Source: Elusimicrobiota bacterium (GTDB taxonomy: Bacteria > CG03 > SLGR01 > JAGXOG01). Taken from it: a stretch of 16,873 nucleotides of DNA. The stretch is taken from NCBI GenBank assembly GCA_051745145.1, contig JBNJDT010000034.1, positions 1-16,873 of the forward strand, read 5' to 3'. A model generated the notes under the pieces. The model made no database searches. It was given only the letters and a program-made list of their open reading frames with translations, and was not told the DNA's origin. The position numbers and the translations under genes were made by a program. Positions 1 through 16,873 of the stretch are shown piece by piece (within the stretch, counting starts at the first letter, position 1; every line of letters starts with the position of its first letter).

Positions 1-161
1 TCTATTGTCTTTTGGGGAACTCCTTCAGGTAGAGTGACAGTGACATATGTATTCATACTAAAATTTGTATGTTTCTGGAAATTTCTATCTGAGTCCCGGC
101 AGCCGGCTAATACGGCACAGATTAACAGTATCTCAAAAATTTTAAATTTTAAATTACTCAT
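1..161 (-). CDS. apbE: Lipoprotein, probable ApbE/RnfF-family FAD:protein FMN transferase (5' part only; runs off the window edge)
   Basis: Not in the ORF track. Manual translation from ATG at 161..159 gives MSNLKFKIFEILLICAVLAGCRDSDRNFQKHTNFSMNTYVTVTLPEGVPQKTI. It has a LAGC lipobox followed by F-x-M-N-T-x-V-x-V-T-L, resembling the ApbE N-terminal 'MGT.v.it' strand. It lies directly downstream of an rnf-like operon that carries an SGAT flavinylation motif. Only 53 codons are visible. Confidence 0.65.
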   Translation of the reverse strand, partial: MSNLKFKIFEILLICAVLAGCRDSDRNFQKHTNFSMNTYVTVTLPEGVPQKTI

Positions 162-177
162 CTATTTGAAAAAATAA

Positions 178-753
178 TTATTCTATAATTTTCAGCGCCT
201 CTGTAGGACACTTACGTACACACACCTTACAACCGGTGCATCTTTGAAAATTAACTGACGGCAACCCGTTTTCGGTAAGATCTATGGCATTTTCCGGACA
301 GACATTTACGCAGATATAACATTTAATGCACCCCTTAGGACAGTATTCTTCAACTTCTTCGGGTTTTAAAGAAGTATTACATGATAAATATACTTTTCCC
401 TCACTCTGTTCAACCATCTTAATAAGATTAACCGGACACACTTCCATGCATATCCCGCAGCCGGTACATTTTTCATAAATAACATCCAGATTTTCGGTAA
501 TTGCATTCTCCGGACAACTTTTTATACACGATTTAAGCCCCAGGCAACTATCTTTACACACATAATTATTTTTAAATTTTCGGTAAGCTACCCGGCAGTC
601 TTTAATATTACCGTAATTAAATTCAGTTTCCCGGGGCAATGTGCATTTAATAATAGCTGCTGCCGGCTTAGATTCTTTAGTTCTGGGATTTTTAAAAACA
701 GGCTGCTTATATAAAATAAATACCAATATTACTAAAATAACAACGGCCCACAT
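178..753 (-). CDS. rnfB: RnfB-like membrane-anchored polyferredoxin, lacking the N-terminal Fe-S domain
   Basis: N-terminal hydrophobic anchor. RnfB-type segment Y.NIKDC..A.......CKDSCLGLKSCIKSCP, then CTGCGICMEVCP, CPKGCIKCYICVNVCP and CTGCKVCVRKCP. Last gene of a C-D-G-E-A-B order, with a TAATG overlap with the upstream gene at 751-755. Confidence 0.8.
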   Translation of the reverse strand: MWAVVILVILVFILYKQPVFKNPRTKESKPAAAIIKCTLPRETEFNYGNIKDCRVAYRKFKNNYVCKDSCLGLKSCIKSCPENAITENLDVIYEKCTGCGICMEVCPVNLIKMVEQSEGKVYLSCNTSLKPEEVEEYCPKGCIKCYICVNVCPENAIDLTENGLPSVNFQRCTGCKVCVRKCPTEALKIIE

Positions 754-1274
754 TATTTTAATCCCTCCATCAATAGCATAAATAGAGAAATTATAATTAA
801 AATGACCTGTTCTGGCTTTATATTACTATTTTTCTCAATATTAATATTTTTATAAACGGAATACACTGCAAAAACTAATCCTAAAAAACCTGTTAAAATA
901 AGTCCGGCCATATTTATATAATCCATAAAATTAGCCCCTGCTGTGCTGACATGAATAATTAAACCGGCCGCGAAGAGACTGTAATAGGCCCCCGGTTCTT
1001 TTTTTATCTCAGTAAAATTAAATATTCTGCCGGTTATTTCTCCGGCAATTATTACCACAAACGGGATCGCCATTAAATACAGCACTGGATCTTGGACCGC
1101 AGAAATTTCATTTAACCCCATGTAAATAAACAGCCCTGTTACAGAATGAGTTATTAAATATATGTAGTATTTAAGTAGATCTTTGGAATTATCCACCTCA
1201 GGGAGAATATCTACAATAAACCGGAGTCCGAAAAATAAGAAAAATGAACTTTTTAATAACTGTAAAATATTCAA
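753..1274 (-). CDS. Highly divergent RnfA-like integral membrane protein (no cysteines)
   Basis: Multi-pass hydrophobic 173 aa protein in the rnfA slot. Its C-terminal half (GAYYSLF...ANFMDYINMAGLILTGFLGLVFAVYSV...VILIIISLFMLLMEGL) follows the RnfA pattern (GIYLPLI..NC...NF.QS...G...GF.L.L.L...IR...IALI.AGLM.LAF.GF). TTG start overlaps the upstream TGA stop. Confidence 0.55.
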   Translation of the reverse strand: MNILQLLKSSFFLFFGLRFIVDILPEVDNSKDLLKYYIYLITHSVTGLFIYMGLNEISAVQDPVLYLMAIPFVVIIAGEITGRIFNFTEIKKEPGAYYSLFAAGLIIHVSTAGANFMDYINMAGLILTGFLGLVFAVYSVYKNINIEKNSNIKPEQVILIIISLFMLLMEGLK

Positions 1275-1759
1275 ATTTTTATTCTCCGGAGTATAAAACT
1301 GTAAATTATCATAATCAACACTGTGTATAACATTAACAATCCGGCCGTTATATTTGGCACCCGGCTTATTAATAAAGCAGTAAACCCCAAAGTTCCAAAA
1401 CCGGCGACTATGCCGCTAAACCAGAATAAATCGGCCCGGAATGAAAAATTTCCCGTTCCCCGACCGGTTACATAAACTGTCCAAATTACCGCTAAAGTAT
1501 GGAAAATTCCCAGCTCTCCTGAGGGAATAACCCCGAATAATAAAGCTGACCATATAACCGTAAGTACCAATAATTCTCTGCGGTCCAGATAATCAAATAA
1601 AAAATAATTAATTATACCCCCGCCCAATACTGCTGATAACCCGGTTATAATCGATATAGCAGGCTCCAAGCCGTAATATATAAAACCAAGCAAGGGAACT
1701 ACCCCCGCTCCCCGGGAAAATACTGTCTGTATACCTTTAATGAAGTTTGTTTTTTGCAT
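1271..1759 (-). CDS. Highly divergent RnfE-like integral membrane protein (no cysteines)
   Basis: Sits in the rnfE slot. FIKGI...GAGVVPLLG aligns with RnfE F.NG.....LGLCPLLA, and LGIFHTLAVIWTVYVTGRG aligns with RnfE LGIFIPLIVVNCIILGRAE. Confidence 0.6.
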   Translation of the reverse strand: MQKTNFIKGIQTVFSRGAGVVPLLGFIYYGLEPAISIITGLSAVLGGGIINYFLFDYLDRRELLVLTVIWSALLFGVIPSGELGIFHTLAVIWTVYVTGRGTGNFSFRADLFWFSGIVAGFGTLGFTALLISRVPNITAGLLMLYTVLIMIIYSFILRRIKI

Positions 1760-2192
1760 CTTGAATGGCTTCCAGTAAGCCCTCGCTTGACTGTGTCGCT
1801 CCGCTTACCGCATCAATGTCGGTTGTCTGATTATCTATGATTCGGGGAATAATTTCCCCCCGGACCTTATTCCAGTATTTGCTTATCTCCCGGGACTCAA
1901 TAACCTCAATATCTGTAATAACCGGCGAGCTTCCCGGTCCCCTATTTTCAAAAGTAACTTCTACTATTATCTTCCCGGCAAACCCCTGGCCCGTTCCTTT
2001 TTTGACTACATCTTTTTTTAATCCGGGGGAAGGGTCTTCTTTTTCTACAGTTCCCTTAGAAACACCGCCCTTTTTTTGTTGTTTTTCCTGTGCTTTTTCG
2101 TGACCCGGACTCTTTTTCACAGCAGTATTTTTCTGTGATGATATAATAAAAGCTACCGCCAAAGACAATATTATAACAATAATTTTTCTCAT
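1737..2192 (-). CDS. Membrane-anchored FMN-binding-domain protein in the RnfG position
   Basis: N-terminal signal/anchor helix, Lys/Glu/Pro-rich linker, then an FMN_bind-type domain (GTGQGFAGKIIVEVTF...ITDIEVIES.E...DIDAVSGATQSS) with an intact [S/T]GA[T] ApbE flavinylation motif. Confidence 0.85.
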   Translation of the reverse strand: MRKIIVIILSLAVAFIISSQKNTAVKKSPGHEKAQEKQQKKGGVSKGTVEKEDPSPGLKKDVVKKGTGQGFAGKIIVEVTFENRGPGSSPVITDIEVIESREISKYWNKVRGEIIPRIIDNQTTDIDAVSGATQSSEGLLEAIQDAKNKLH

Positions 2193-2941
2193 ATATTTTC
2201 CACTATACTTCCAACTAAAGCACCGGCCAATATTCCCAAAACCCCAAAAATAGAAATTGCAATACCCGTAACCAGGCCGGTAATTCCCTTATCCTTATTT
2301 TGCAATGGAAGAACTCCGGGATAGGAAAGCAATAAACTTCCCCACAGGAAAAGAGGCAGATAATTGTTAAATTCCGCCCAGCCGGAAAAAATTAACTTTG
2401 TTATTAAAAATCCCAGCGCTATAAATAATATAAAATAGAGATTAACCCTTTTTCTAAAGATTAGATATATTATCCCTGCCAGATATAAATAAACTGTAAT
2501 GCCAAAATTATCGGGCCCGAACGAATTAATATATTTCATCAAAAGTAACGGCGCTATAATTACCGGTTTAAACGGGGTCACCGGCGGCCCTTTAAATATT
2601 ATTTCATATATTATAATCGATAATAGCACCGCCCCCCCTACAATAACAAACCTATTTGTTCCCGTTACGGACAGCCTGTACCAGACCATAAGAAATATTA
2701 AAATTCCGGTGACTGCAGATTGCAAAATTTTTACTGTAATCTTTTTCTTTTTAAAATAACCTGTTATTCCAAAAGTAAATGCAGATATAATTAAAATCCC
2801 CAGGAATTCAACTCCCTGGCCAGTTAAAAATAACCGGTAACCCAAAGCCGGCAGCAGAGCAATCAATAAATCAGTCCATACGTATAACTCCTCGCGAGAT
2901 TTATGGGCAAAAGGAGGTAACCCCACCATAAACGTATTCAT
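2189..2941 (-). CDS. rnfD: Divergent, shortened RnfD-like membrane protein (about 250 aa)
   Basis: Start re-assigned to the ATG at 2941, which overlaps the rnfC TGA stop as ATGA. The N-terminus MNTFMVGLPPFAH.....WTDLLIALLPAL matches RnfD 'SSPH.H......M.DV.IAL.PA'. AVTGILI, IFKGPPVTPFKP (cf. LFGG.G.N.FNPA) and AGIIYLIFRKRV (cf. GG.YL..RK.I) also match. Confidence 0.7.
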   Translation of the reverse strand: MNTFMVGLPPFAHKSREELYVWTDLLIALLPALGYRLFLTGQGVEFLGILIISAFTFGITGYFKKKKITVKILQSAVTGILIFLMVWYRLSVTGTNRFVIVGGAVLLSIIIYEIIFKGPPVTPFKPVIIAPLLLMKYINSFGPDNFGITVYLYLAGIIYLIFRKRVNLYFILFIALGFLITKLIFSGWAEFNNYLPLFLWGSLLLSYPGVLPLQNKDKGITGLVTGIAISIFGVLGILAGALVGSIVENI

Positions 2942-3918
2942 TCTAAATACCATCCCGGACATAAAAACCCGCACAATCCACATCCGATACACCCGTCTAC
3001 TTTAGAAAAAGGAATAAATCCCCGGCCGTTTTTAAAAATTTTAAGGATATGGGGGCTTTCCAGATATTGGGGGCAAACTTCTATACATTTTCCGCACCCG
3101 ATACACCCGTCTAATTTACTGCTGTAATTATTTAGTATTATTAAATTATCAAAATTACCGGCCCGTAAATCTTCCATGGATTTTACCGCCTGTCCGGACA
3201 GCAAACCGTTCTTTACAACAAATTTACCGGTACCCCCTATCTTATCTATTAACTCCCTGGCTACGGTATTTTTATTAACCTTAAAAAGGTGGTTTATTTT
3301 TTCATAATTTAAAATCACATATTCATTTTCATCGGTTTCAGAATAGTCTATAAATCTGTAAAGTTTAATTAATTTTTCTATTGCTACCACCAGATTCCCC
3401 CTTTTTCCCGGAAAATAATTATCTCTCTTTTTTATCCCGTATATGTATTTCCATAATATCTCATTAAATCCGAGAGGATACCGGTTCTTCTCCTCTTTAA
3501 GAAAGATATTAGGAGACCGTCGAATTTGCTCATCCAGTTTATTTATAAATTCCATATGCCGGGGAACTATTAACCGGCCGTAATCCGCGGCAACAGCTTT
3601 CATGATTAACTTCAACCCGCCGATTATTTGAAAATTGAAAAGCTCCAGGAGTATGTTTCTATAACCGATAAAAGGATACTTAACCATCCCGTTTCCAGTC
3701 ACCCGGCCGCATCCCACTTTCTCTATTTTTAGTAATTCCCTTTCAGTAAAAACACCGGACTGAATAATTTTTTCTCTTAAGTAGTCTCTATCTTCCGTGT
3801 GAAACTTAGATGGCGGCCGTTTTTTGTCTTTTCCGGATTTTTCTTTCTTTTCGCGGTAATCTACCAAATCCATCCGGGGTATATTTATTCTAACTTTCCC
3901 TCTTAAACTTTTTAACAT
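2938..3918 (-). CDS. rnfC: Divergent RnfC-like protein with a C-terminal 2x[4Fe-4S] domain
   Basis: YPLGFNEILWKYIYG (cf. YP.G.EK.LI....G), GTGKFVVKNGLLSG (cf. GG....I.GGPMMG), and CIGCGKCIEVCP plus CIGCGLCGFLCP. First gene of the C-D-G-E-A-B order. Confidence 0.7.
   Translation of the reverse strand: MLKSLRGKVRINIPRMDLVDYREKKEKSGKDKKRPPSKFHTEDRDYLREKIIQSGVFTERELLKIEKVGCGRVTGNGMVKYPFIGYRNILLELFNFQIIGGLKLIMKAVAADYGRLIVPRHMEFINKLDEQIRRSPNIFLKEEKNRYPLGFNEILWKYIYGIKKRDNYFPGKRGNLVVAIEKLIKLYRFIDYSETDENEYVILNYEKINHLFKVNKNTVARELIDKIGGTGKFVVKNGLLSGQAVKSMEDLRAGNFDNLIILNNYSSKLDGCIGCGKCIEVCPQYLESPHILKIFKNGRGFIPFSKVDGCIGCGLCGFLCPGWYLE
2981..3118. repeat. 24-bp near-identical direct repeat (22/24; 16-bp exact core) encoding both ferredoxin motifs of the RnfC-like protein
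   Basis: catccgatacacccgtctacttta (2981-3004) versus cacccgatacacccgtctaattta (3095-3118). These encode K-V-D-G-C-I-G-C and K-L-D-G-C-I-G-C. Confidence 0.85.
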
Positions 3919-4817
3919 AATTGGAGGACCTTTTCTATTGTGTTAGTATGTATATCCACTGTATCTTTTAACTCTTTTGATTTTCCGCCCCCCAATAATA
4001 CGGACACCGAAATATTATTTGAAATTGCTTCGTTTAATACAATTTCATCTCTTTTAATAAAATCTCTCTTTTCCAGCTTTAAATCCCCCAAAAGGTCTTC
4101 TTTATAACTACAGGCTCCGGCTATATATATTATAATATCCGGTTTTAAAAAATCTAATTCTTTTTTCAGCTGTTTTTTCAACATATTATTATAAGTCTTA
4201 CCGGAAATATTTTCACTTAAAGAAAAACCCCGGTCCGGGGTTTCCTTAATTATAGGATAAAACTCTTTAGAGTAAAAAGAGAGCACTCTGATATTCTTAT
4301 TGGGCTTTAATATGCTTATAGTACCGTCTGCCTGGTGTAGGTCGCAATCTAAAATCAAAACCCGGCGCCCATCACGGGCTAATTTTAACGCCCCGTAAGC
4401 CACATCGTTAAATACTGTAAAAGCACCGGGTCTATTTTTGTGGGCGTGGGTGAAGCCTCCTCCAATAAATACGCTGCCTCCATCTTCTAAAGCCGCCCGG
4501 CCGCTAAGATAAACCCCGGTGCAGGAGCTAAGAGCAACTTCAGCCGCTTTTTTAGGATATTTAAGTTCTGTCTGAATCTGCTCGGCAACCGACAAATCGC
4601 CGTTTAAGGCTCTATAAATATAATCTTTTGTATGAATACAACTAAGTTCCTCCGGGGAAAGAGAAGGAGTAATTTGAAAAGATTCCCGGCTAAAATATTC
4701 TTTTTCTAACAGCCACTTTTTTATTAATCTGTATTTTTCAAAAGGGTAAGAAGCAGAATCGGAAAGTTCTTCGTAACCGGGATTGTAAAAAATTTCGGAT
4801 TTAACTGACTTCGGCAA
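3912..4817 (-). CDS. Histone deacetylase/AcuC-family protein with substituted catalytic residues
   Basis: HDAC-fold motifs: YPFEKY, L..IHT.DYI, GGGFTHA, GAFTVFND, LDCDLHQADGT, PD.I.Y.AGAC...EDLLG and LGGGK. TTG start. Confidence 0.85.
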   Translation of the reverse strand: MPKSVKSEIFYNPGYEELSDSASYPFEKYRLIKKWLLEKEYFSRESFQITPSLSPEELSCIHTKDYIYRALNGDLSVAEQIQTELKYPKKAAEVALSSCTGVYLSGRAALEDGGSVFIGGGFTHAHKNRPGAFTVFNDVAYGALKLARDGRRVLILDCDLHQADGTISILKPNKNIRVLSFYSKEFYPIIKETPDRGFSLSENISGKTYNNMLKKQLKKELDFLKPDIIIYIAGACSYKEDLLGDLKLEKRDFIKRDEIVLNEAISNNISVSVLLGGGKSKELKDTVDIHTNTIEKVLQLC

Positions 4818-4826
4818 ATTATTCTG

Positions 4827-5489
4827 CTACCAGATATAACGAACTTTGCCGCCCAGGGTAACCCCCAGGAGACTGCCGGCCGGAGTATCGGTGGTCATAA
4901 AACTTTTTAAGCCCACAAACCAGTCCCAGTTGGGATTCATGGGAAAAACTTCCATGCCCATTTTTTGCTGAAACCCAAAAGCTGTCGTCACGGGGTGGGA
5001 AATAGTCTCTCCCGGTTCAGAGCCGGGGGTGGCCCTGTGATTACCCAGGGGTTCTTTACTGTAAAATACGTGATACATTCCGATTCCTCCTCCTATATAA
5101 AAAGCATCGTAAATCGTATATATAAAATTTACGGTCATCGGAACAACATTTAATTTTACAGATATATTTTTTCCGGCGTCATCTAAAACATCCTGGGAAT
5201 AACTCTGTATATCGCCTTCTATTTCCTCTTCGGTGTAATTTACTTCTTCAAGCGATCCAAACATATATCCAAGCCCTAACTCCAAAGATTTCGAATCTAC
5301 CTCCCGAATGCCGGTTATCATAAGAGCGGGAGAAAGAAGTCTGCCGCTTTGAGCGGCATCACCTACCGCAAGACCTAACTCGCCGCCAAGCTCCCAATCT
5401 TCCCAGGAAGCGGCCCGGGCAATATTGAAAAAAGTAATTACTACAGCTACCAGAAATGTAAATATTCTAAAATACCGGTATCTTCTCAT
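4827..5489 (-). CDS. Outer-membrane beta-barrel protein (OmpW/OmpA-transmembrane-like)
   Basis: Signal peptide ending ARA-A. Amphipathic strands such as VVPMTVNFIY, FYIGGGIGMY and WDWFVGLK. C-terminal aromatic signature GGKVRYIW. Confidence 0.7.
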   Translation of the reverse strand: MRRYRYFRIFTFLVAVVITFFNIARAASWEDWELGGELGLAVGDAAQSGRLLSPALMITGIREVDSKSLELGLGYMFGSLEEVNYTEEEIEGDIQSYSQDVLDDAGKNISVKLNVVPMTVNFIYTIYDAFYIGGGIGMYHVFYSKEPLGNHRATPGSEPGETISHPVTTAFGFQQKMGMEVFPMNPNWDWFVGLKSFMTTDTPAGSLLGVTLGGKVRYIW

Positions 5490-6397
5490 CCTTTCTCTTT
5501 TAAAAGGTCTTCTAAGATTGCCTGCTGGATATGCATTCTATTTTCCGCCTGTTCAAATACATAGGAGTGTTCTCCGTCCATGACCTCATCGGTAATCTCC
5601 TCGCCCCGGTGGGCGGGCAGACAATGCATTACCATGACATCGGATTTGGCAACTTCCAGCAAATCTGTATCCACCCGATAGGAAGAAAATTTTTCCAGTC
5701 TCTGGGACTGTTCCTGTTCATCTCCCATACTAACCCATACATCGGTGTATATAGCATCCGCATCTTTAGAAGCTTCAACCGGATCGTTTAAAATTTCTAT
5801 ATTGGGGTTCTTCTTTTGGGCCGGGCTGATAATTTCATCGGCGGGTTCAAAATTTTCCGGTGAAGCAACGCTCAGCTGAAAGCCGAAAATCCCGGCTGCA
5901 TTTATGAGGGAATTACATACATTATTACCGTCCCCTATAAACGAAACTTTTAAATTCTCAAAATCAAATCCCTTGACCTCTGCTATGGACATAACATCGC
6001 CCATGGCCTGACAGGGATGTAAAAGATCAGTCAAACCGTTAATAACCGGAACTCCGGCAGCTTTTCCCATCTCTATGACATCCCGGTGGGAATAGGTTCT
6101 GATCATTATGGCATCCACATATCCGCCCAGGGTTTTAGAAGTATCGTAAATAGTCTCACCTCTGGAAAGCTGTAGAGTTTCGCTTCCAAGGTAAAGAGCA
6201 TCGCCGCCCAGCCGTTTCATAGCTATATGAAAAGAGACATTTGTCCTGGTGGACGGCTTTGTAAATATCATAGCCAGATTTTTATTCTTGCCCGCTTTCG
6301 GGGTCTCACCATTTTTAAGTTCAATACCTCTTTTTAAAAGTCCAGTCAGGTATTTTTCACCGTGATTCCTTAAATCAATTAAATTATTTTTATTCAT
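5486..6397 (-). CDS. argF: Ornithine carbamoyltransferase
   Basis: Canonical motifs F.KPSTRT, NGLTD..HPCQ, GDGNNV, YTDVWVSMG and HCLPAHRG, plus AENR. Confidence 0.95.
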   Translation of the reverse strand: MNKNNLIDLRNHGEKYLTGLLKRGIELKNGETPKAGKNKNLAMIFTKPSTRTNVSFHIAMKRLGGDALYLGSETLQLSRGETIYDTSKTLGGYVDAIMIRTYSHRDVIEMGKAAGVPVINGLTDLLHPCQAMGDVMSIAEVKGFDFENLKVSFIGDGNNVCNSLINAAGIFGFQLSVASPENFEPADEIISPAQKKNPNIEILNDPVEASKDADAIYTDVWVSMGDEQEQSQRLEKFSSYRVDTDLLEVAKSDVMVMHCLPAHRGEEITDEVMDGEHSYVFEQAENRMHIQQAILEDLLKEKG

Positions 6398-7595
6398 TAT
6401 CCTTTAACACCGCATCTACATCTTTCAAACCGTTCCCGGTCAGCAAACAAACTGCCGGAGAAAGCTTTCCAATATCTTCCCCGCTGCCGGCCAGTTTTCT
6501 AAGGCCCGCAACGCTGGTTACTCCCGCAGGTTCGGCAAAAACCCCGGTATTCTCAGCCAGATAAGATATATTATCTATGATTTCTTTATCCGGCACCCTT
6601 ACCGACCGGCCGCCGGTTTCTAAAACAGACCGGACTGCAGCTATACCGTCCCTGGGCTGGTCCACGGCAATGGAATCGGCAACAGTTGAAGCCTGCACCA
6701 TCTCCATCTTAATATCCCGGGGACTGATATTTTTATCATCTATATTTTCCAGGGTTCTGGTAACAGCATCTGAGTTGGCGCTTTGAACTGCTATAATTTT
6801 GGGCATCTTTTCTATAAGATCCAGTTCTTTTAAATCCCGGAACCCTTTCCATACCCCGCTTATTATATTACCGTCACCCACAGGTACAAAAACTGAACCC
6901 GGAGCTTTGTAACTTAACTGCTCCCATATTTCAAAAGCAACAGATTTTTTTCCTTCTCTGGTATAAGGATTATATCCGGTACACCGGTTAAAATAATTAT
7001 TCTCCAGAGAGTCGGACACGCAAAGATCATAGGCCTCATCATAAGTACCCGAGACCAATCGCACATCGGCTCCGTAGACTCCCAGCTGGGCTATTTTAGC
7101 CCGGGGTGCTGACTCGGGCACATATATTATAACTTCCACACCAGATGCCGCTCCCATACAGGCCCAGGAGCATCCGGCATTTCCCGTTGACGCACAACTT
7201 ACCACCTCAATACCTTTCTCCCGGGCCACGGCCATAACCACAGAACTGGCCCGGTCTTTAAATGAAGCTGACGGCAGGCGGGTATCATCTTTTAAATACA
7301 CCTTATCCAGTCCCGTCTGTTCAGCTATATCTTTATTGTCATACAACGGGGTAAGCGACATATCCAGAGCAGGTATAAACCTGCTATCCTCAAAAGGGAA
7401 AAGAGGCATGTAACGCCATACATCCCGCTGGGGATTGTTCTTTAAGGCGGGTACTGAAAATATTCTTTTTATATCGTCGTAATCATAGGTTACATCCAGA
7501 TTACCAGAACAATCTTTGCAGGTGTACCCGTCATAATCCGGGGAATGCTGTTTTCCGCAGACCAGACACTCAAAACCGGTCATAAAATTCGACAT
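6390..7595 (-). CDS. Threonine-synthase-like fold-type II PLP enzyme with N-terminal CxxC...CxxC zinc ribbon
   Basis: SFKDR (PLP lysine), CASTGNAG, NP...EG.K, VPVGDGN, EPAG and LTGNGLK. N-terminal CLVC...CKDC. Substrate uncertain, so no gene symbol is given. Confidence 0.85.
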   Translation of the reverse strand: MSNFMTGFECLVCGKQHSPDYDGYTCKDCSGNLDVTYDYDDIKRIFSVPALKNNPQRDVWRYMPLFPFEDSRFIPALDMSLTPLYDNKDIAEQTGLDKVYLKDDTRLPSASFKDRASSVVMAVAREKGIEVVSCASTGNAGCSWACMGAASGVEVIIYVPESAPRAKIAQLGVYGADVRLVSGTYDEAYDLCVSDSLENNYFNRCTGYNPYTREGKKSVAFEIWEQLSYKAPGSVFVPVGDGNIISGVWKGFRDLKELDLIEKMPKIIAVQSANSDAVTRTLENIDDKNISPRDIKMEMVQASTVADSIAVDQPRDGIAAVRSVLETGGRSVRVPDKEIIDNISYLAENTGVFAEPAGVTSVAGLRKLAGSGEDIGKLSPAVCLLTGNGLKDVDAVLKDNE

Positions 7596-7596
7596 A

Positions 7597-8538
7597 TTAC
7601 TTAGTAAAAGTAGTGCCGGTTTTACCCGTAGCGCAATCCTTTAAATTAGCAGGTGAAGTAACTACTGCTTTTTTGCCGCCGTCTTCTATATACCGGAGGA
7701 TAGCCTTAATTTTAGGCAGCATACTGCCCTCGGCAAAATGGCCTTCATCAATATACTTTTTAGCTTCTTCAACAGAAAGGGAAGATAATTTTTTCTCATC
7801 ATCCTGTCCGAAATTTAAGCATACATTATCAACAGCAGTTGAGATTATAAACATATCCGCATCCAGGCGGGTAGCCAGCAGGGCAGAAGCATAATCTTTA
7901 TCAATTACAGCGGGTACCCCTTTTAACATGCCGTCATCCCGCTTGTAAACCGGTACGCCACCGCCACCTACGCCGATAACAGTATAACCGCTCTTAGCTA
8001 AAGCACCGATGGCATCTTCTTCGAGTATCTGCTTGGGATCCGGAGAGGGTACTACCCTACGGTAACCGCGGCCGGCATCTTCAACTATATTCCAGCCCTC
8101 TTCACTCTCTTTTTCCTTAGCTTTTTTTTCATCCATAAAGCTCCCTATGGGCTTGGAAGGATTTTCAAAAGCGGGATCGTCTTTATCTACCAGAACTCTG
8201 GTTATTACTGTTGCAGCTTCCTTCTGAATTCCCCTATTATCGAATTCGTTTTTTAAGGCCTGCTGGAACAGGTAACCTATGGCGCCCTGAGTATCCGCCC
8301 CGCAAGAATCCAAAGGAACAGGATGTATCCCTTCTTTTTCTCCCAGTTCCGAACGTCTCAGAATAAAACCCACCTGCGGGCCGTTTCCATGGGTAATTAT
8401 AACATCCCATCCGTCTTCTATAAGATCCACAATATGTTTGGAAGTCTCCACTACCGCCGAATACTGGTCGGGCACACTCTGGTGCTGGGCATCCTTAATA
8501 AGTGAATTTCCACCAACTGCGATTACTGCTAAAGGCAT
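7597..8538 (-). CDS. arcC: Carbamate kinase (ArcC/YqeA)
   Basis: AVGGNS, THGNGPQVG, GADTQG.IGY, DPAF.NP.KPIG, EDAGRGYRRVVPSP, GGGGVPV, AVIDKD and GSMLPK. GGAGG Shine-Dalgarno upstream. Confidence 0.95.
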   Translation of the reverse strand: MPLAVIAVGGNSLIKDAQHQSVPDQYSAVVETSKHIVDLIEDGWDVIITHGNGPQVGFILRRSELGEKEGIHPVPLDSCGADTQGAIGYLFQQALKNEFDNRGIQKEAATVITRVLVDKDDPAFENPSKPIGSFMDEKKAKEKESEEGWNIVEDAGRGYRRVVPSPDPKQILEEDAIGALAKSGYTVIGVGGGGVPVYKRDDGMLKGVPAVIDKDYASALLATRLDADMFIISTAVDNVCLNFGQDDEKKLSSLSVEEAKKYIDEGHFAEGSMLPKIKAILRYIEDGGKKAVVTSPANLKDCATGKTGTTFTK

Positions 8539-8583
8539 ATTTAAATCCTCCGTTTTTTAACTTTCATTTACTGCCAACTAAAT

Positions 8584-9606
8584 TTATTCTGCCATGGTTA
8601 AAGCCATTATAGCTTTTTGGACATGAAGTCTGTTTTCAGCTATATCTACAATAATAGACCGGGGCCCGGACGCAACTTCATCAGTAACTTCATGATTTCT
8701 GTCCACAGGCATAGGGTGAGAAAATACAGCGTCATTAGTTATTTGCATTTTTTCCTCATCACAAATCCAGTCTTCATATTTTAGGGCTTTTTCTATCTCT
8801 TCCTCTTTGCGGAGCTTTCCGCCGCGATAGGCGTCTTTACTCATCCAGTTTCTGGAATAAACTATATCCGCATCTTCGTAAGCTTCGGCCGGATCGTTGG
8901 ATACTGCAAACTCAGTACCGTTTTCCTGGCAATTTTTCTTAGTCCACTCTAAAACTTCATCGTCAAGTTCATAACCTTCGGGATGGGCTACTCTGACATT
9001 CATTCCCATTCTCGAGTTTATTAACATACTCTCGTGTACCGAGCAGTGTGAACGGGCCAGGGCACCGTGTCCCCAGGCATGAACAATAGTCTTGTCTTTT
9101 AAATCTTCACTTACGTGTTTGCGATATCCCATTACATCGGCAAGTCCCTGACAGGGATGAAACCTATCGTGAGCCATGCTTATTATAGGCATATCGGCAT
9201 ATTTAGCATAATTTTTAAGCAACTGATCGCCCAGTCCGTACTCTCCGATTTTATCTTCCAATATTCTTATGCCCAAACCAACTGCATAGCGGGACATAAC
9301 TTTAGCGGCGTCTTCTACTGTTTCTCCTGCCGAATCTTTTGTTTTTAGTCTCATGGCAGAAGGTTCTAAGAATAAGGCGTGTCCCCCTAATTCTGTAGCC
9401 GCAATTTCAAATGACTGCCTGGTTCTAACCGAAGGGTTATAAAAAAACATTAAAAAACTTTTACTATTTAAAATATTTGTAAACTCCGGAGCAAATCTTT
9501 TTTTCTGCATCTCTTCAGCCAATTCTAAAACTTCTAAAAGTTCTTCCTTTGACCAATCCTGTGTGGTAATTAAATCTTTACCGTAATATTTTGATTTTCC
9601 TTCCAT
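8584..9606 (-). CDS. Divergent carbamoyltransferase of the YgeW/AOTCase-like group (second paralog)
   Basis: NPSVRTR, HPCQGLAD, AWG, ADIVYSRNW, HPMPVDR and AENRLH. Lacks the OTCase DxxxSMG ornithine loop. AGGAGG Shine-Dalgarno upstream. Confidence 0.85.
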   Translation of the reverse strand: MEGKSKYYGKDLITTQDWSKEELLEVLELAEEMQKKRFAPEFTNILNSKSFLMFFYNPSVRTRQSFEIAATELGGHALFLEPSAMRLKTKDSAGETVEDAAKVMSRYAVGLGIRILEDKIGEYGLGDQLLKNYAKYADMPIISMAHDRFHPCQGLADVMGYRKHVSEDLKDKTIVHAWGHGALARSHCSVHESMLINSRMGMNVRVAHPEGYELDDEVLEWTKKNCQENGTEFAVSNDPAEAYEDADIVYSRNWMSKDAYRGGKLRKEEEIEKALKYEDWICDEEKMQITNDAVFSHPMPVDRNHEVTDEVASGPRSIIVDIAENRLHVQKAIMALTMAE

Positions 9607-9640
9607 TTTTCCTCCTATATAACATGTATACTCTATTGAA

Positions 9641-9681
9641 AAGCTACGGCGCGTAAATTTAAGATTACGCGCCGATAGCTT
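9641..9681 (-). terminator. Intergenic GC-rich stem-loop (terminator-like or mRNA-stabilising) between the two carbamoyltransferase genes
   Basis: aagctacggcgcgtaa (9641-9656) and ttacgcgccgatagctt (9665-9681) pair as 16 bp with one bulge. On the minus strand it ends in only a short U tract (TTTTC). Confidence 0.65.
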
Positions 9682-9695
9682 CTACTTTTCTTAAA

Positions 9696-10772
9696 TTACA
9701 GCCGGCCGCCCATTAACATTGCCATAATTGCTTTATGGGCATGTAACCGGTTTTCAGCTTCGTCTATAACTACAGACTGAGATCCGTCAATTACCGGATC
9801 CGTAACTTCCTGGCCTCTGTCAGCGGGCAAACAATGCATATATTTACCGTTTTTGTTTACCAGATTCATCTGCTTTTCAGTTGTCATCCAATCTTTATTA
9901 GCCTCGTTTAGTTCTTCAGCTTTTTCCAGGTCCTGTTCTTTAACTGTTTTATTATTCTCATCTGTATAATTAAAACAGGAAGCAGCTCCCCAGGATTTAG
10001 GATAAACTATATCCGCATCTTCGAAACCTTCGTCAAAATCATCGGTGATTCCAAAAGAACCATTTTCCTGATCGGCAAAACTTTTGCAGGTTTCTATGAC
10101 ATTAGGATCCAGTTCAAAACCTTCCGGACGGGCCAGAGTCACATCCATCCCCATCTTTGAGGCGGCAAGTATTACGCTCTGGGGTACAGCCCGCGGTTTT
10201 TCAATTGAACCGGAATAGGCCCAGGACATAGTCAGTTTTTTGTTTTTAAACCCGCCCATCTTTTCTTTTATAGTCATAAGATCAGCAAGGGCCTGGGTGG
10301 GATGATATTTATCACACTCCATATTAATCACGGGTATATCAGCCCATTCAGCAAACTCTTTAATGGTCTCATTTGCAAATCCGTAAATCCAGTGAGCCTT
10401 AGGTCCATACATTCTTATGGCTATAGCATCACCTACTCTACTGAGAATCCTCGAAACATCGGAAATTCTCTCTGTTTCATAAGGTATTTCAAAACCTTTT
10501 CTGGCCGGGGTGTAAGTTTTACCCGGTTCCAGATCAACATGATAACCACCTAACTGCTGTATTCCGGCCGCAAATGTGCACCGGGTCCTGAGAGACTGAT
10601 TAAAAAATATAGTAAATAAAGTCTGCCCTCTTAAAAGATCATCCATGGGTTCTTTCATGGCATATCTTCTTTTAAGTTCCAGACCTACATCAATCATGGT
10701 CTCCCATTCCTCTTTGGAAAAATCCAAAGTTGCATCAATCCAATCTCTTCCAAAAAATCGATTAGTCTTCAT
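9696..10772 (-). CDS. ygeW: YgeW-like carbamoyltransferase
   Basis: SLRTR, HPTQALAD, KKLTMSWAYSGSIEKPRAVPQS (cf. E. coli YgeW-type WAYSPSYGKPLSVPQG), DIVYPKSW, YMHCLPAD and EAENRLH. AGGAGG Shine-Dalgarno at 10781-10786. Confidence 0.8.
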   Translation of the reverse strand: MKTNRFFGRDWIDATLDFSKEEWETMIDVGLELKRRYAMKEPMDDLLRGQTLFTIFFNQSLRTRCTFAAGIQQLGGYHVDLEPGKTYTPARKGFEIPYETERISDVSRILSRVGDAIAIRMYGPKAHWIYGFANETIKEFAEWADIPVINMECDKYHPTQALADLMTIKEKMGGFKNKKLTMSWAYSGSIEKPRAVPQSVILAASKMGMDVTLARPEGFELDPNVIETCKSFADQENGSFGITDDFDEGFEDADIVYPKSWGAASCFNYTDENNKTVKEQDLEKAEELNEANKDWMTTEKQMNLVNKNGKYMHCLPADRGQEVTDPVIDGSQSVVIDEAENRLHAHKAIMAMLMGGRL

Positions 10773-10833
10773 CGATTATTCCTCCTTTTATTTGTTCTTA
10801 ACTTATTCCCAAGTTTCTATAATTTTAATGATG

Positions 10834-10863
10834 ATAATAACAAATTTAAAGTATCACTGTCAA
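10834..10863 (-). promoter_or_regulatory. Sigma70-type internal promoter upstream of ygeW
   Basis: Minus strand: TTGACA (10863-10858), 18-nt spacer ending TGT, then TATTAT (10839-10834). This is a perfect -35 and an extended TGn -10 with a 5/6 match, about 60 nt before the ATG. Confidence 0.7.
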
Positions 10864-11847
10864 TTACTTAGGTACAGTAAACTTTTTCTCTTTGCTAAAA
10901 TTTAAATTTTCAAACCAGTCTTTAATACAACATCTTACCTTATAGTCCCCGGACGGTAAACCCTTATAATCAAACACTAAATCATAAGGCGCCGAATCCA
11001 CCGGATACCCTATATCTTTCCAGCCATTGCCATTATTAATTTCCAAAGTTACTTCCGTTATATAATTGCCGGTTACTTTTGTATTCACTACCATACGGGT
11101 ATCCACGACAGGATGCTGTCTTAAATCTGTTATCTCCACCGAACTCTCCGGGGAACCTTTTTTAACCATTTTTATAGCGAGCCCCGGTTGAAAAAAATTT
11201 ATCCCGGTAGTCTCCCCCCCTTCTTTTACGAGAAAAGAGTTTTCTCCTTTTTCTTCTCCTATGCCCCCTGCAAGTACAGGGGCTGTTTTAACACTGTTAA
11301 GTTCTTTATCCGGACTCCACAGATGAATATAGTTAAAATCCTGTTTATTAATTTCCTCTTCGGAAACCTCAACCCAGAACCATTTGCTTTCTCTTACATA
11401 CTCGTCCGCCCGGGTAGGAGAACCCTCCCTGGGAATCTTATCAGTGGTAGTTAACAGTTTAGCCTGGGGACGTTGTTCTACAGAACCGGATAATCCTATG
11501 TGAATTCTATAGGGACCGTCTGACGGTTCTATATCAGATTCCTGTTCTCCCAAAATTTTCTCTATCTGTTTCTCTGTTTTAGCTCTACCCAGTTTTGCCC
11601 CTATAAAAAATCTATCATACTCTTTTGTTTTTGCCCGGGGAACTTTATTTATCCATCCGTGCCCATAACCGACATACCAGTTTCCCGACCAGCCGCCATT
11701 GGCAAAAAGATTATATTCGGCGGGCGTAGGGAGCCCCGATATAAAATCAGTATACTTATCATCCGTGCACCCGGACCCGGTTATTACCGAAAGCATTATA
11801 CCTGTTCCAATGAAAATTAAAATTTTGAATTTATTTAACTTTTTCAT
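10864..11847 (-). CDS. Hypothetical exported protein / probable lipoprotein with a C-terminal Ig-like beta domain
   Basis: Basic N-terminus, hydrophobic stretch and a lipobox-like GSGC. Aromatic/Gly motif YNLFANGGWSGNWYVGYGHGW. C-terminal APY.....Y..LP.G.Y.V.....D...N pattern typical of bacterial Ig-like domains. Confidence 0.65.
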   Translation of the reverse strand: MKKLNKFKILIFIGTGIMLSVITGSGCTDDKYTDFISGLPTPAEYNLFANGGWSGNWYVGYGHGWINKVPRAKTKEYDRFFIGAKLGRAKTEKQIEKILGEQESDIEPSDGPYRIHIGLSGSVEQRPQAKLLTTTDKIPREGSPTRADEYVRESKWFWVEVSEEEINKQDFNYIHLWSPDKELNSVKTAPVLAGGIGEEKGENSFLVKEGGETTGINFFQPGLAIKMVKKGSPESSVEITDLRQHPVVDTRMVVNTKVTGNYITEVTLEINNGNGWKDIGYPVDSAPYDLVFDYKGLPSGDYKVRCCIKDWFENLNFSKEKKFTVPK

Positions 11848-12904
11848 TTACTATAAATCCGGGCAAACCGGAATAAAATTCTACAGCTTTTTCAACTTCC
11901 AGGATATCAATTTTTTCTTCAGGGGAATGACATTCTTCTTCTTTTCCCGGACCAAACCCGATAGTGGGAATTTCTCTATCTCCGGCTGTGTAAGAACCGT
12001 TTGTACAGAAGGGCCAGAACTTTGTCTTTTCACTACCGGTTATCTGCTGTTGCGTTTTTCGGGCTGCAGCATATAAAGGATTGTCAAAAGATATTTTCCA
12101 GGGTTTATAATAAGGAGTAATACCTTCGACAAAATCTTTCTCCTTCACAATTTTTTTAAATGCTGATAGAATTTCCTGTTCGGATCTACCCACACCGCTT
12201 CTGTAATCACAATATACAGTGCATTTTTCCGGTATAATATTTATATTTTCATTTGAGGTCTCCACCTTGGTCACGACCACTGAATCTTTCTTTAATTCGG
12301 AATTAATTTCTTTTACTTTTTCTATTATTTTAACCGCCCGGTAAATAGAATTTTCTCCGGCTTCCGGGTCACTGGCGTGCCCGGCTTTGCCTGTAATATT
12401 CAATTTTATACCCAAACGGCCCCGGTTTCCAAAAGCCACCTTTAAGCCCGATGGTTCACCTATTACAATGTAATCCGGTTGAATTTCAGTTTCTTCAAAA
12501 AAGTTCTTCAGACCGTTCCCCTCGGCCACTTCTTCCCGAACACTCCCTACAACATACAGAGTTATCCCTTCTACATCAGCTTTCGCTCCCCCGTAAACCA
12601 TGGCCGCCAAGGATCCTTTATCATCGCAGGAGCCCCGGCCTATAAGATTTTTATCCTTCATCCTCACCTTGTAGGGATCGTCTTTCCAGCCCTGTCCGGG
12701 TTCTACAACATCCATATGAGCATCGTAAATCACTACCGTATTTCCGTCCCCGCGGCGACCGCAGATATTACCTCCGGATTCTATAACCTCATCGTAGTTG
12801 AGTTCTGAAAACTCCTTTTTAAGACGACCGGCAACTTTCTCTTCCCGGCCGGATAAGGATGGGATTTCAACTAACTCTTTTAAAAATTCTACAACCGGAG
12901 ACAT
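11831..12904 (-). CDS. ygeY: YgeY-family M20 metallohydrolase
   Basis: YDAHMDVV, GRGSCDDKG, V.EE, IGEP, G.RGR, GHAS.P, W.F.TNG (YgeY-type), GFGPG.E..CH. Adjacent to ssnA. Confidence 0.8.
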   Translation of the reverse strand: MSPVVEFLKELVEIPSLSGREEKVAGRLKKEFSELNYDEVIESGGNICGRRGDGNTVVIYDAHMDVVEPGQGWKDDPYKVRMKDKNLIGRGSCDDKGSLAAMVYGGAKADVEGITLYVVGSVREEVAEGNGLKNFFEETEIQPDYIVIGEPSGLKVAFGNRGRLGIKLNITGKAGHASDPEAGENSIYRAVKIIEKVKEINSELKKDSVVVTKVETSNENINIIPEKCTVYCDYRSGVGRSEQEILSAFKKIVKEKDFVEGITPYYKPWKISFDNPLYAAARKTQQQITGSEKTKFWPFCTNGSYTAGDREIPTIGFGPGKEEECHSPEEKIDILEVEKAVEFYSGLPGFIVNEKVK

Positions 12905-12905
12905 T

Positions 12906-14219
12906 TTACTCTATATTTTCCCAAACTTTTTTAGCAGTTTCCCTAGCCCGGGCTAAAACTTCCTCCTCTTTAATTTTTAGAATTTTCTTATGTCTCATCA
13001 GAATCTCACCGTCACAAATTGTACTATCTACTGAGTAATCTCCCATTCCAAAAAGAAAGTGTCCCAAAAAATTATCCTTATTGATAGGGGTAGCCGGATC
13101 GTAGTCTATGGTAACTATGTCGGCATAAGCTCCCGGTTTTAATTTACTGTTATCCCATCCCGTAATTTTATCTAAAATTTTGGGATTATTATTTAACAGC
13201 ATATCCGGAACTTCCGTAAAAGCTACCGCCGGATCCTGGTATTGATGCCTGGCCAGCAAAAAAGCAGTCCGGGCCTGACTTCTTACATCCGAACTCATCC
13301 CGTCCGTACCTATTCCCACATCTAAGCCTTCCGAATACATATCCAGTATTTTAGAATATCCGACAGCGTTATTCATATTACTCTCGGGATTATGAACTAC
13401 CGAAGAACCGGCCGCTTTTATCAGCTCCCTTTCGGACTGGTCTATATGTATGCAGTGTATTAATAAACTTTTTTTATTTAATGCCCCGGCTTCATGAAAT
13501 CTTTCTATAACTGATTGTCCGTATTTTTCGCGGGTTCTCTCCTGATCAGCAATGCCTTCTGCAGCGTGAACATGAATTCCGGCATTAAATTTTTCTGCCA
13601 GATGAACACTTTTTTCCAGTGTCTCCTGATCAACCGTAAAAGAGGCATGTAACCCAACCATGCCCTTTATTTTGTCAAAATCCTTTCTTAAAAAACGTTC
13701 ATTTTCTTCCAGGCCCTGTTCTCCTTTACCGAACCGGTCCGAGGCGCCCAGACATAAAACACCTTTTATTCCCATCTGTTCAACTGCCTTACTTATTTCA
13801 TCAAGACTGCCTATCTGATACGATTGACTCTCATGATGATCTATTACGGAAGTAACCCCGCACTTTATACTTTCTATGATAGGAACTATAGCTGAATAAT
13901 AAATAGCTTCCCTGAAAAGAGCATCGTCAAGTTTCCACCACATATTCTCAAGCACCTGGTCAAAATTACCGGTGGGCTCTGACGGGGCCCATCCCCGGGC
14001 AAAAGTTGAATAAAAGTGATGATGGGTATTTACAAAAGAGGGCATAATTATCTTTCCCGTAGCATCTAATACATCCGCGCTGTCGTATTTTCTTTTTATC
14101 TGAGATAATTCGCCAATAGCTTTTATTTTTTTTCCCTCTACTACCACTGCCCCGGGATTAAAAATTCTATTGTTTTCATCCAACGTCACCACTGTTCCGC
14201 CTTCGATTCTTACTGTCAT
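12906..14219 (-). CDS. ssnA: SsnA-family amidohydrolase
   Basis: NTHHHFYSTFARG, LE.MWWKLD, GVT.VIDHH, GLHASFT, HVHAAE, HNPESNMNNAVG and GTDG. AGGAG Shine-Dalgarno upstream. Confidence 0.9.
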   Translation of the reverse strand: MTVRIEGGTVVTLDENNRIFNPGAVVVEGKKIKAIGELSQIKRKYDSADVLDATGKIIMPSFVNTHHHFYSTFARGWAPSEPTGNFDQVLENMWWKLDDALFREAIYYSAIVPIIESIKCGVTSVIDHHESQSYQIGSLDEISKAVEQMGIKGVLCLGASDRFGKGEQGLEENERFLRKDFDKIKGMVGLHASFTVDQETLEKSVHLAEKFNAGIHVHAAEGIADQERTREKYGQSVIERFHEAGALNKKSLLIHCIHIDQSERELIKAAGSSVVHNPESNMNNAVGYSKILDMYSEGLDVGIGTDGMSSDVRSQARTAFLLARHQYQDPAVAFTEVPDMLLNNNPKILDKITGWDNSKLKPGAYADIVTIDYDPATPINKDNFLGHFLFGMGDYSVDSTICDGEILMRHKKILKIKEEEVLARARETAKKVWENIE

Positions 14220-14274
14220 AAAATTACTCCTTTCAAATTATAATTATTCATATTTTTTAAAAATTCCATCACTT

Positions 14275-16591: not shown

Positions 16592-16695
16592 AATATTTTT
16601 CTCCGTTTAAATTAATTCTATCCGCATATGAAGTTGTTTTTTTTAGGTAAGTTCTTTTTTGAAACAATTTATTGATAATTAATCTCCTGTTCCTG

Positions 16696-16718
16696 TGATT
16701 TTCCGGACCGGAAAATCA
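16696..16718. promoter_or_regulatory. Perfect 11-bp inverted repeat (candidate operator or hairpin) upstream of the cluster
   Basis: TGATTTTCCGG-A-CCGGAAAATCA, about 105 nt upstream of the first ATG (16591), in the tRNA-to-operon spacer. Confidence 0.5.
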
Positions 16719-16853
16719 AAATACTTTTATTTACAACCAAGCTGGCCCCTGAGTACTTTAAAAATTTCTTAATGCCAGCTTTAAAACTGCTTTTACTGCT
16801 TAAAAATTCAGCATGCTCCAAATCCCTTCTATTCAATTTTCAAAGCTTATTTA

Positions 16854-16873
16854 TGGTGCCGGGGGCGGGATTT
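16854..16873 (-). tRNA. 3' end of a tRNA (probably tRNA-Leu), truncated by the window edge
   Basis: Reverse complement reads AAAT-CCCGC-CCCCGGC-A-CCA: end of the T-loop, 3' T-stem, 7-nt acceptor strand, discriminator A and encoded CCA. A GCCGGGG acceptor with A73 is typical of tRNA-Leu, but the anticodon is not visible. Confidence 0.8.

Follow-up and report, generated by a model that had tools for sequence, protein, structure and literature searches.

This analysis concerned an HDAC11-like open reading frame (ORF) at 3912..4817 on the minus strand of a 16,873-nucleotide stretch of DNA from an Elusimicrobiota bacterium (assembly GCA_051745145.1, contig JBNJDT010000034.1, positions 1 to 16,873), the whole of which is referred to here as the window. 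The encoded protein (the HDAC-like protein) belongs to a family of Zn-dependent deacylases, and three of its six catalytic or Zn-binding positions were found to be replaced. Judging from the residues lost and kept, the reading ranked first, to which about even probability is given, is that the protein is a deacylase which has lost its catalytic ability, probably still binds a metal and is kept as a binding part of its operon. This reading is placed first because the catalytic Tyr is lost, because its replacement is not fixed between the two species that carry the altered site, and because the hydrophobic acyl pocket is gone.

Fold and active-site residues of the HDAC-like protein

The HDAC-like ORF encodes 301 amino acids from a TTG start and is one of 18 genes in the window, all on one strand, in a genome of 1.8 Mb (94 contigs, 92.6% complete). 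Its product matched PF00850 (Hist_deacetyl) over residues 27-292 with 115 bits against a cut-off of 27.9 (E 5.7e-33), and a scan with the NCBIfam models returned no match for this ORF. The closest solved structures, all of class IV type, were 9gz5/9rjd (E 1.9e-36), 9gkv/9gky (E 1.2e-30) and 9rje (E 3.1e-26). An AlphaFold2 model built from 90 sequences reached a mean predicted local distance difference test score (pLDDT) of 94.9 and a predicted template-modelling (TM) score of 0.93, and it superposed on Vibrio cholerae HdaH (VcHdaH; 9gkv/9gky) with a TM score of 0.91 and on 9gz5 with a TM score of 0.89 at 32% identity. Membership of the arginase-deacetylase fold is thus indicated both by the PF00850 score and by the class IV superpositions (TM 0.89-0.91), and the fold is regarded as intact because of the high model confidence together with the agreement with VcHdaH and 9gz5.

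Within class IV, clade B is marked by a bulky aromatic gatekeeper (Phe/Tyr) before the His-His dyad and by a pocket end without an Arg-Glu pair, according to PMC13325672. The HDAC-like protein carries the gatekeeper Phe122, has Val94 and Ser98 in place of the clade-A Arg/Glu pair, and retains the channel residues Phe133 and Tyr187 (Tyr189 of the Leptospira enzyme introduced below). These markers and the confident model place it, with its fold intact, in the clade-B class IV (HDAC11-like) branch of Zn-dependent deacylases.

The best sequence match among solved structures is liHDAC11/B, the Leptospira interrogans HDAC11 solved as 9rjd and described as a clade-B class IV long-chain fatty-acyl-lysine deacylase (PMC13325672); the title of 9gz5 names the same protein with cis-5-dodecenoic acid. 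The two proteins are alike in their near-equal length and numbering, in Phe122, Phe133 and Tyr187/189, in the GGG wall, in the Asp-x-His ligand motif and in the second dyad His. They differ at His123 (Thr in the window protein), Asp237 (Cys), Tyr281 (Lys), Cys134 (Thr) and Gly132 (Ala), as well as in the foot pocket, where Leu18, Leu20, Ala27 and Ile91 are replaced by Glu, Ser, Phe and Ala, respectively. The top structural match, VcHdaH, is a cluster 5b de-decanoylase with a class IV/cluster 5 fold and an extended foot pocket (PMC11532494); it is 24-25% identical to the window protein and differs from it in being an active, monomeric enzyme whose catalytic set (SGGYHH, GGGY) is complete.

Alignment to 9gz5/9rjd, 9gkv and 9rje placed GGGFTHA of the HDAC-like protein opposite GGGFHHS, IAGAC opposite IAGAD, and GGGK opposite AGGY, with the Asp-x-His motif retained (DCDLHQADG against DLDLHQGNG of the solved relatives). 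With residues numbered as in PMC13325672, that is, by the structure chain index minus 3, T123, H124, D159, H161, C236 and K279 correspond to His123, His124, Asp161, His163, Asp237 and Tyr281 of liHDAC11/B. On the minus strand, Thr123 (codon ACC, 4449..4451) replaces the first dyad His, Cys236 (TGT, 4110..4112) replaces the third Zn ligand Asp, and Lys279 (AAA, 3981..3983) replaces the catalytic Tyr, the residue by which the scissile carbonyl is polarised. The second dyad His, which is the proposed general base, is retained as His124 (CAC, 4446..4448), and so are the Zn ligands of the Asp159-Leu160-His161 motif (4335..4343, with GAC at 4341-4343 and CAC at 4335-4337). The substitutions and the intact DLH ligands that had been reported in the initial annotation were therefore borne out by the codons and by the alignment to solved relatives, and each of the features looked for in a catalytically competent classical deacylase, namely the third ligand Asp, the His-His dyad and the Tyr of GGGY, is altered in this protein.

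The altered residues were also found outside the window genome. The genome labelled G001, from a second species of the same genus, encodes an HDAC-like protein with Thr from a synonymous codon (ACC in the window, ACT in G001), with Cys from the same codon (TGT in both) and with Asn rather than Lys at the Tyr position (AAA in the window, AAT in G001), whereas 11 canonical orthologues use CAY, GAY and TAY at these three sites. The His-to-Thr and Asp-to-Cys replacements each involve two base changes. Additionally, contigs from three RNA-library runs of one study and one DNA run of another matched parts of 2900-5500 at 95-100% identity, and library contigs carried the altered codons without change at T123 (X1, 4324-4571), C236 (X1 and X3) and K279 (X3, 3899-4143). 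The RNA-library contigs cover the gene in part, at low depth and with possible DNA carry-over, so that they confirm the sequence and are at best a weak hint of transcription; no library record spans the junction of the HDAC-like and RnfC-like genes with 31 letters on either side. Sequencing error or drift in a single genome was ruled out as the cause of the substitutions by the Thr (with its synonymous codon) and Cys of G001 and by the unchanged library contigs.

The distribution of the Thr-His/Cys signature was assessed with a word-indexed search of 5.8 billion proteins (173 matches, 120 inspected), an exhaustive search of 1.84 billion representatives (3739 matches at E <= 0.001, 150 inspected) and 61 related genomes, and the 269 relatives listed from both searches were aligned to one profile for residue counts. 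Besides the query, the best match in the word-indexed search was P0002, the G001 protein, at 58% identity (the next match was at 38%), and the exhaustive search separated it in the same manner (385 bits, with the next match at 181 bits). Among the 269 listed relatives, the first dyad His column holds H in 259, A in 4, I in 3, T in 2 and N in 1, and the second holds H in all 269; the Asp-x-His columns hold D in 268 and H in 267. The third-ligand column holds D in 264, C in 2, A in 2 and a gap in 1, and the Tyr column holds Y in 261, N in 2, K, G and F in 1 each and a gap in 3, so that 5 of the 266 residues are not Tyr. Thr-His and Cys occur together only in the window protein and P0002, with no further carrier among the 269 listed relatives or the 61 related genomes. 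The canonical residues (HH, D and Y) are present in each of the ten orthologues found in the order's other genera and in the one from G023, elsewhere in the phylum. A homologue search for the full T-H/C/K signature thus found the T-H/C part in a second species, which makes it neither unique nor an error, but the K was absent there and, among the relatives inspected, the signature is confined to one genus.

Other relatives with a variant first His were also noted (P0173, P0176, P0226; P0161, P0164, P0179, P0224; P0205). Three class IV type relatives of this set form an I-H group that also lacks the Tyr, one member also lacking Zn ligands; an A-H group of four class IV type relatives, which are longer proteins, keeps the ligands and the Tyr; and one protein has N-H.

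Evolutionary rate and the acyl pocket

The HDAC-like gene has evolved far faster in the window genus than elsewhere in the order. Canonical orthologues are 50-67% identical to one another, whereas the two genus-specific proteins are 33-42% identical to any canonical one, and no comparable drop was seen in the window genus for the OTC gene, the barrel gene upstream of the HDAC-like gene or the RnfC-like gene downstream of it. The branch separating the window-genus pair measured 2.98 substitutions per column for the HDAC-like protein against 0.36 for OTC and 0.21 for the barrel protein, making it approximately eight times the length of the OTC branch, and the path between the two species measured 1.10, 0.18 and 0.55, respectively. 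The ratio of nonsynonymous divergence (dN) of the HDAC-like gene to that of OTC was 4.6 (0.344/0.075) in the window genus versus 1.3 and 1.2 in two canonical pairs, and the ratio to the RnfC-like gene was 1.04 versus 0.49 and 0.60. The PF00850 score is correspondingly 115-122 bits in the window-genus pair against 180-207 bits in the 10 canonical operon copies.

Despite the rate, the gene has been maintained. Both ORFs are intact (301 and 300 amino acids) with one gap opening in 300 aligned residues, and dN between them is 0.34 against a synonymous divergence (dS) of 1.39; the corresponding omega of approximately 0.25 is a rough figure, as dS is saturated (1.1-2.5 across comparisons) and omega values here serve as upper-side guides that are unsuited as a test of neutrality. 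Because dN is well below dS, gaps are so few and both ORFs are intact, the HDAC-like gene is regarded as still selected, though under less constraint. Loss of essential residues is thus found together with purifying selection, the combination by which a pseudoenzyme is recognized.

The replacements extend from the catalytic residues into the loops that build the site. The 11 canonical orthologues share 82 invariant columns; both genus proteins retain the residue at 47 of these, one of the two has a different residue at 8, and both depart from it at 27. Replaced loop blocks include GxHVFP (now S-A/P-S-Y/F-P-F), LELPYS (now [TS]ELKYP) and PDHGEGFC (now KN[RK]PGAF[TS]), and further blocks are QGNGTA (now QADGTI) and HQENNYP (now YSKEFYP). 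At 24 catalytic or pocket positions, taken from sections 11 and 14 of PMC13325672, the pair agrees in 18 cases, and of the metal-proximal positions the Tyr site alone is not shared; the six that differ (window/G001) are Y/F15, E/K17, S/N19, Y/F24, T/S134 and K/N279. The site was thus rebuilt on the stem of the genus and has since stayed mostly unchanged, the exceptions being the distal foot pocket and the Tyr position.

In that foot pocket, six of ten positions are changed in both species relative to the 11 canonical orthologues (17, 19, 26, 91 and 98, together with 94, which is V, a residue seen once in those orthologues). Ile/Val17 became Glu or Lys, Ile19 became Ser or Asn, Thr26 became Phe and Leu91 became Ala; the residues now at 17 and 19 are charged or polar, and the two species do not share them. 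By residue comparison, the long hydrophobic foot pocket of clade B is no longer present in the HDAC-like protein.

Competing readings of the remodelled site

In the preferred reading, the HDAC11-like gene is a fixed operon member in the order, lying between the barrel gene and, in most genomes, a divergent six-gene Rnf-like module. A burst of change in one genus, of which two species are known, replaced the first His, the third Zn ligand and the transition-state Tyr, and it left the acyl foot pocket lined by polar or bulky side chains. The protein most likely no longer deacylates lysine at a useful rate; a metal is probably still bound at Asp159, His161 and Cys236 within the conserved metal-proximal pocket, and in our view the operon has probably kept the protein for a non-catalytic role in binding a ligand or a partner. 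The Tyr site is held to contain no fixed catalytic residue because it is Lys in the window and Asn in G001.

This also bears on the functions offered in the initial annotation. Its suggestion of a pseudo-enzyme agrees with the reading ranked first here, although the proposed binding of acyl-lysine is argued against, for a long-chain acyl reader, by the lost hydrophobic pocket. In its alternative, a new chemistry with an Asp/His/Cys metal site and Lys, the part given to the Lys is unlikely since that residue is unconserved, and a catalytic or carbamylated Lys279 was rejected because G001 carries Asn. The ureido or carbamoyl substrate proposed with it found nothing in its favour beyond the gene neighbourhood.

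Class IIa HDACs (HDAC4/5/7/9), in which the Tyr is replaced by His, are very poor enzymes that have been proposed to be acetyl-lysine binders. They resemble the window protein in having lost the transition-state Tyr with retention of the fold and the Zn site; unlike it, they keep the His-His dyad and the Asp/His/Asp ligands, and they are eukaryotic, multi-domain proteins of a different class. The H976Y substitution is described as shifting HDAC4 toward class I behaviour (PMC13763078). Inactive HDAC-fold proteins are already known, as exemplified by the lineage-restricted inactive HDA7 of Arabidopsis thaliana (AtHDA7; PMC10920125). Like the window protein, HDA7 has the HDAC fold, is restricted to a lineage and has been retained despite the loss of catalytic or Zn-binding residues; the two differ in that HDA7 is without the XDXH Asp and His and does not bind Zn (PMC10920125), whereas the window protein keeps XDXH and has the other ligand changed to Cys. 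HDA7 is furthermore a eukaryotic class I protein that arose by duplication, and the window protein is the orthologue itself rather than an additional copy.

Several observations weigh against a disabled deacylase, the main one being that the new residues are conserved, and because of this the protein is not called simply dead. At 21 of the 27 doubly changed invariant columns, both species hold the identical new residue, compared with 105 of 218 columns elsewhere (Fisher p = 0.004), and across all once-invariant columns the pair is 83% identical (68/82) against 48% (105/218) elsewhere (Fisher p = 2e-8). Such conserved new residues are as compatible with re-tooling of the site as with its death. 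The change from Asp to Cys took two base changes and would provide another good metal ligand, and Asn164 is replaced by Asp, which we take to be the state of class I enzymes, with the general-base His124 kept. Lys and Asn can both donate a hydrogen bond. The 58% identity of the pair is also unexceptional for the genus, given that these two genomes also share a canonical, probably exported paralogue whose copies are only 52.6% identical. Finally, the H142A variant of human HDAC11 is reported to retain approximately 7% of activity and H143A approximately 0.3%, with the second dyad His assigned as the general base (bioRxiv 10.1101/212043); because H142A keeps this activity, loss of the first His alone would not be lethal to such an enzyme, and the window protein may have some residual activity.

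Several of these points favour a re-tooled enzyme, which we regard as possible though on the unlikely side. It would have an Asp/His/Cys metal site, a His124-Asp164 base and a Lys/Asn hydrogen-bond donor, and it would catalyse a different reaction or have a substrate that, compared with long-chain acyl-lysine, is smaller, more polar or more activated. Beyond the 21 of 27 replaced invariant positions, the 18 of 24 identical pocket or catalytic positions and the kept general base with its HDAC11 H142A precedent, it draws on a Thr123 that was held through a synonymous change (ACC/ACT), on a Cys that arose by two base changes, and on a polar distal pocket that fits a switch of substrate. Set against it are a transition-state residue that is not fixed (K versus N), the relaxation of overall constraint visible in the rates and dN, and the little power that conservation has when two sequences are compared. 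We know of no family member, though no exhaustive search was made, that functions with Cys as a ligand or in the absence of the Tyr.

That the gene is decaying, with function lost in the genus ancestor and residual or polar constraint remaining, for example from translational coupling to the RnfC-like gene, is judged improbable. The very long stem branch and the lowered Pfam score agree with decay, the HDAC-like stop overlaps the next start, and two relatives (G005 and G007) show that the segment can be rearranged. In opposition, the ORF is intact and equally long in the two species although 42% of their residues differ, and the single gap opening and the dN well below dS were noted above; once-invariant columns remain 83% identical in the pair, the AlphaFold2 model is very confident, and parts of the gene occur in RNA-library contigs, which counts weakly. 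Least probable of all, and by our estimate very improbable, is an ordinary acyl-lysine deacylase that tolerates its substitutions: the fold, Phe122, Phe133, Tyr187, two of three Zn ligands and the general base are kept, but both the Tyr (261/269 listed relatives) and the Asp (264/269) are replaced, class IIa HDACs without only the Tyr are very poor enzymes, and the foot pocket is re-lined.

Operon context and the Rnf-like module

The stop codon of the HDAC-like gene (TAA, 3912-3914) is overlapped by the RnfC-like gene, whose ATG is at 3916-3918, giving the overlap of 7 nucleotides (3912..3918, minus strand) that had been described previously; it proved genuine, as the RnfC-like start is supported by an N-terminus, M-x-[ST]-[LYF]-[RK], common to 10 of 10 orthologues. 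The RnfC-like gene (2938..3918, minus strand, 326 amino acids) scored 51 bits to TIGR01945 against a cut-off of 246, over model positions 163-415, and its product, in which eight Cys are invariant, has no counterpart to the N-terminal third of RnfC. It heads a six-gene Rnf-like module at 178-3918 on the minus strand in the order C, D, G, E?, A?, B, every member of which is far under its NCBIfam cut-off. The rest of the module (178..2992), recognized by family scans and hhalign, comprises an RnfD-like gene (2189-2992), an RnfG-like gene (1737-2192), genes for two small membrane proteins (E?, 1271-1759, and A?, 753-1274) and an RnfB-like gene (178-753). The RnfD-like protein (267 amino acids) aligned to the RnfD of the same genome by hhalign with 70% probability (E 4e-5) and has a gap at the S-K-A-T-P-L stretch of RnfD, which we take to be the flavin attachment motif. 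Canonical Rnf genes are present on other contigs of the window genome (RnfD 341 bits, RnfA/E 208-226 bits and a 424-amino-acid RnfC), and the Rnf-like genes are a divergent paralogue set of canonical Rnf that is found only in this Elusimicrobiota order.

Gene order was compared with 12 loci from other genomes, 11 of them from the order and one from G023. A PF00850 gene was present in 13 of 14 order genomes, and the order loci read OTC, a 220-amino-acid barrel gene and the HDAC gene, followed in most by the RnfC-like gene. The HDAC gene is immediately upstream of the RnfC-like gene in all 11 assessable order genomes, with an overlap of 1-8 nucleotides or a gap of 3 nucleotides; the contig of G008 begins 151 nucleotides before the RnfC-like gene. 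Of 26 phylum genomes, 12 contain an RnfC-like gene of full length, which scored 264-454 bits against the alignment profile, and all 12 are in the order; in a profile scan of 185,579 species genomes 10 of 41 loci were full-length, all of them from Elusimicrobia(ota) or a metagenome-assembled genome. The canonical order orthologues (G003-G013) share with the window protein its length and its slot between the barrel and RnfC-like genes, overlapping or abutting the latter, and differ from it in keeping HH, D, Y and the hydrophobic foot pocket.

The small outer-membrane beta-barrel gene (4827..5489, minus strand, 220 amino acids) is the most constant neighbour, directly upstream of the HDAC gene in all 12 order genomes holding the HDAC gene. 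Its product has a signal peptide and a C-terminal aromatic residue and no Pfam match, with an OMP_b-brl lead from the Atlas; the AlphaFold2 model is eight-stranded (pLDDT 87.7), and Foldseek matched it to OmpA-TM, NspA, Ail and OmpX. In G006 (L025, 4554-4877), the middle of the barrel gene is found at the end of the contig, on the strand opposite its own 3' end, which is probably an inverted chimeric assembly end.

The link to the Rnf-like genes is looser. Two of the 13 order genomes with an HDAC gene (G005 and G007) keep the barrel and canonical HDAC genes with no Rnf-like genes downstream. An ApbE-like gene follows the HDAC gene in G005, and ApbE follows the RnfB-like gene in G001. In G001 (L015, 13794-16203), the RnfB-like gene is followed by genes for an ApbE flavin transferase, a NusG_II-domain protein and a Hpre_diP_synt_I/Maf fusion, and in G005 (L017, 666-3008) the same genes come directly after the HDAC gene, with a Cys-rich ORF of 103 amino acids at the Rnf-like slot. 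Because these genes directly follow the HDAC gene, the arrangement suggests that the Rnf-like module was deleted in G005. The assignment of the HDAC-like gene to a remodelled Rnf module, made from the overlap, therefore holds as far as adjacency is concerned (11 of 11 assessable genomes); because other genera are canonical, the alteration of the site does not belong to the module as such, and the tie is limited by G005 and G007 and by the steadier association with the barrel gene.

From the second YgeW-like gene through the RnfB-like gene, genes overlap or lie at most 45 nucleotides apart, and consensus scans, the only kind used, found no strong intergenic terminator-like site over this interval. 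The upstream part of the window (5486-16591, minus strand) is a ygeW/ygeY/ssnA-type cluster whose gene order is conserved across relatives. Its members are an 8-oxoguanine-deaminase-like amidohydrolase, a HEAT-repeat protein, SsnA, a YgeY-type M20 hydrolase and a 327-amino-acid protein without a family, together with two carbamoyltransferases just under the N-acetylornithine carbamoyltransferase cut-off, a carbamate kinase, a ThrC-like pyridoxal phosphate enzyme and OTC. The best sigma70-like site in a consensus scan (11/12, extended TG) lies at 10834-10863 (minus strand), before the first YgeW-like gene, and a GC-rich hairpin of 10 pairs with a T-tail lies at 9647-9674 (minus strand), between the two YgeW-like genes.

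A second HDAC gene occurs, within the order, only in the window genus (L001 1321-2385 on contig C1 of the window genome, G000; L035 1986-3089 in G001). It is of canonical class IV type (SGGYHH, NAGTD, SGGY) and carries a lipoprotein-like signal, and its copies in the two species are the 52.6% identical pair mentioned above. The window genome's other HDAC gene (C1:80080) is nearer to the VcHdaH type. From the signal, this paralogue is probably exported, which would be unusual for an HDAC11-like protein, and for that reason it is doubtful that it took over the cytoplasmic role of the HDAC-like gene. An HDAC-family paralogue of a different class, with GGGGF where the Tyr of GGGGY is expected, was noted on contig C75 of G003 (L034, 1984-2934).

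The Asp/His/Cys combination, its origin in an orthologue instead of a spare copy and the order-wide HDAC11-like/barrel/Rnf-like operon are new. In a literature search, none of these three points was found described, although the supplements of two class IV papers could list similar variants. A broader proposal can be drawn from these sequences, namely that the window protein is a re-tooled Asp/His/Cys metalloprotein with a new reaction or a sensing role, and that HDAC11-like proteins are built-in partners of an undescribed Rnf-derived membrane complex with a paired outer-membrane barrel in one Elusimicrobiota order; taken as a whole, it is considered rather unlikely.

Overall, structures and activities of bacterial class IV deacylases have become available only recently, and the locus provides a natural experiment: at one and the same place in the operon, ten genera-level relatives have a canonical enzyme, and a single genus, with two carriers, has a remodelled form. 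If merely inactive, the protein would be a bacterial addition to the short list of HDAC-fold pseudoenzymes. Comparison of the canonical and remodelled forms could reveal the role of the canonical enzyme in the operon and which HDAC11-type residues are exchangeable.

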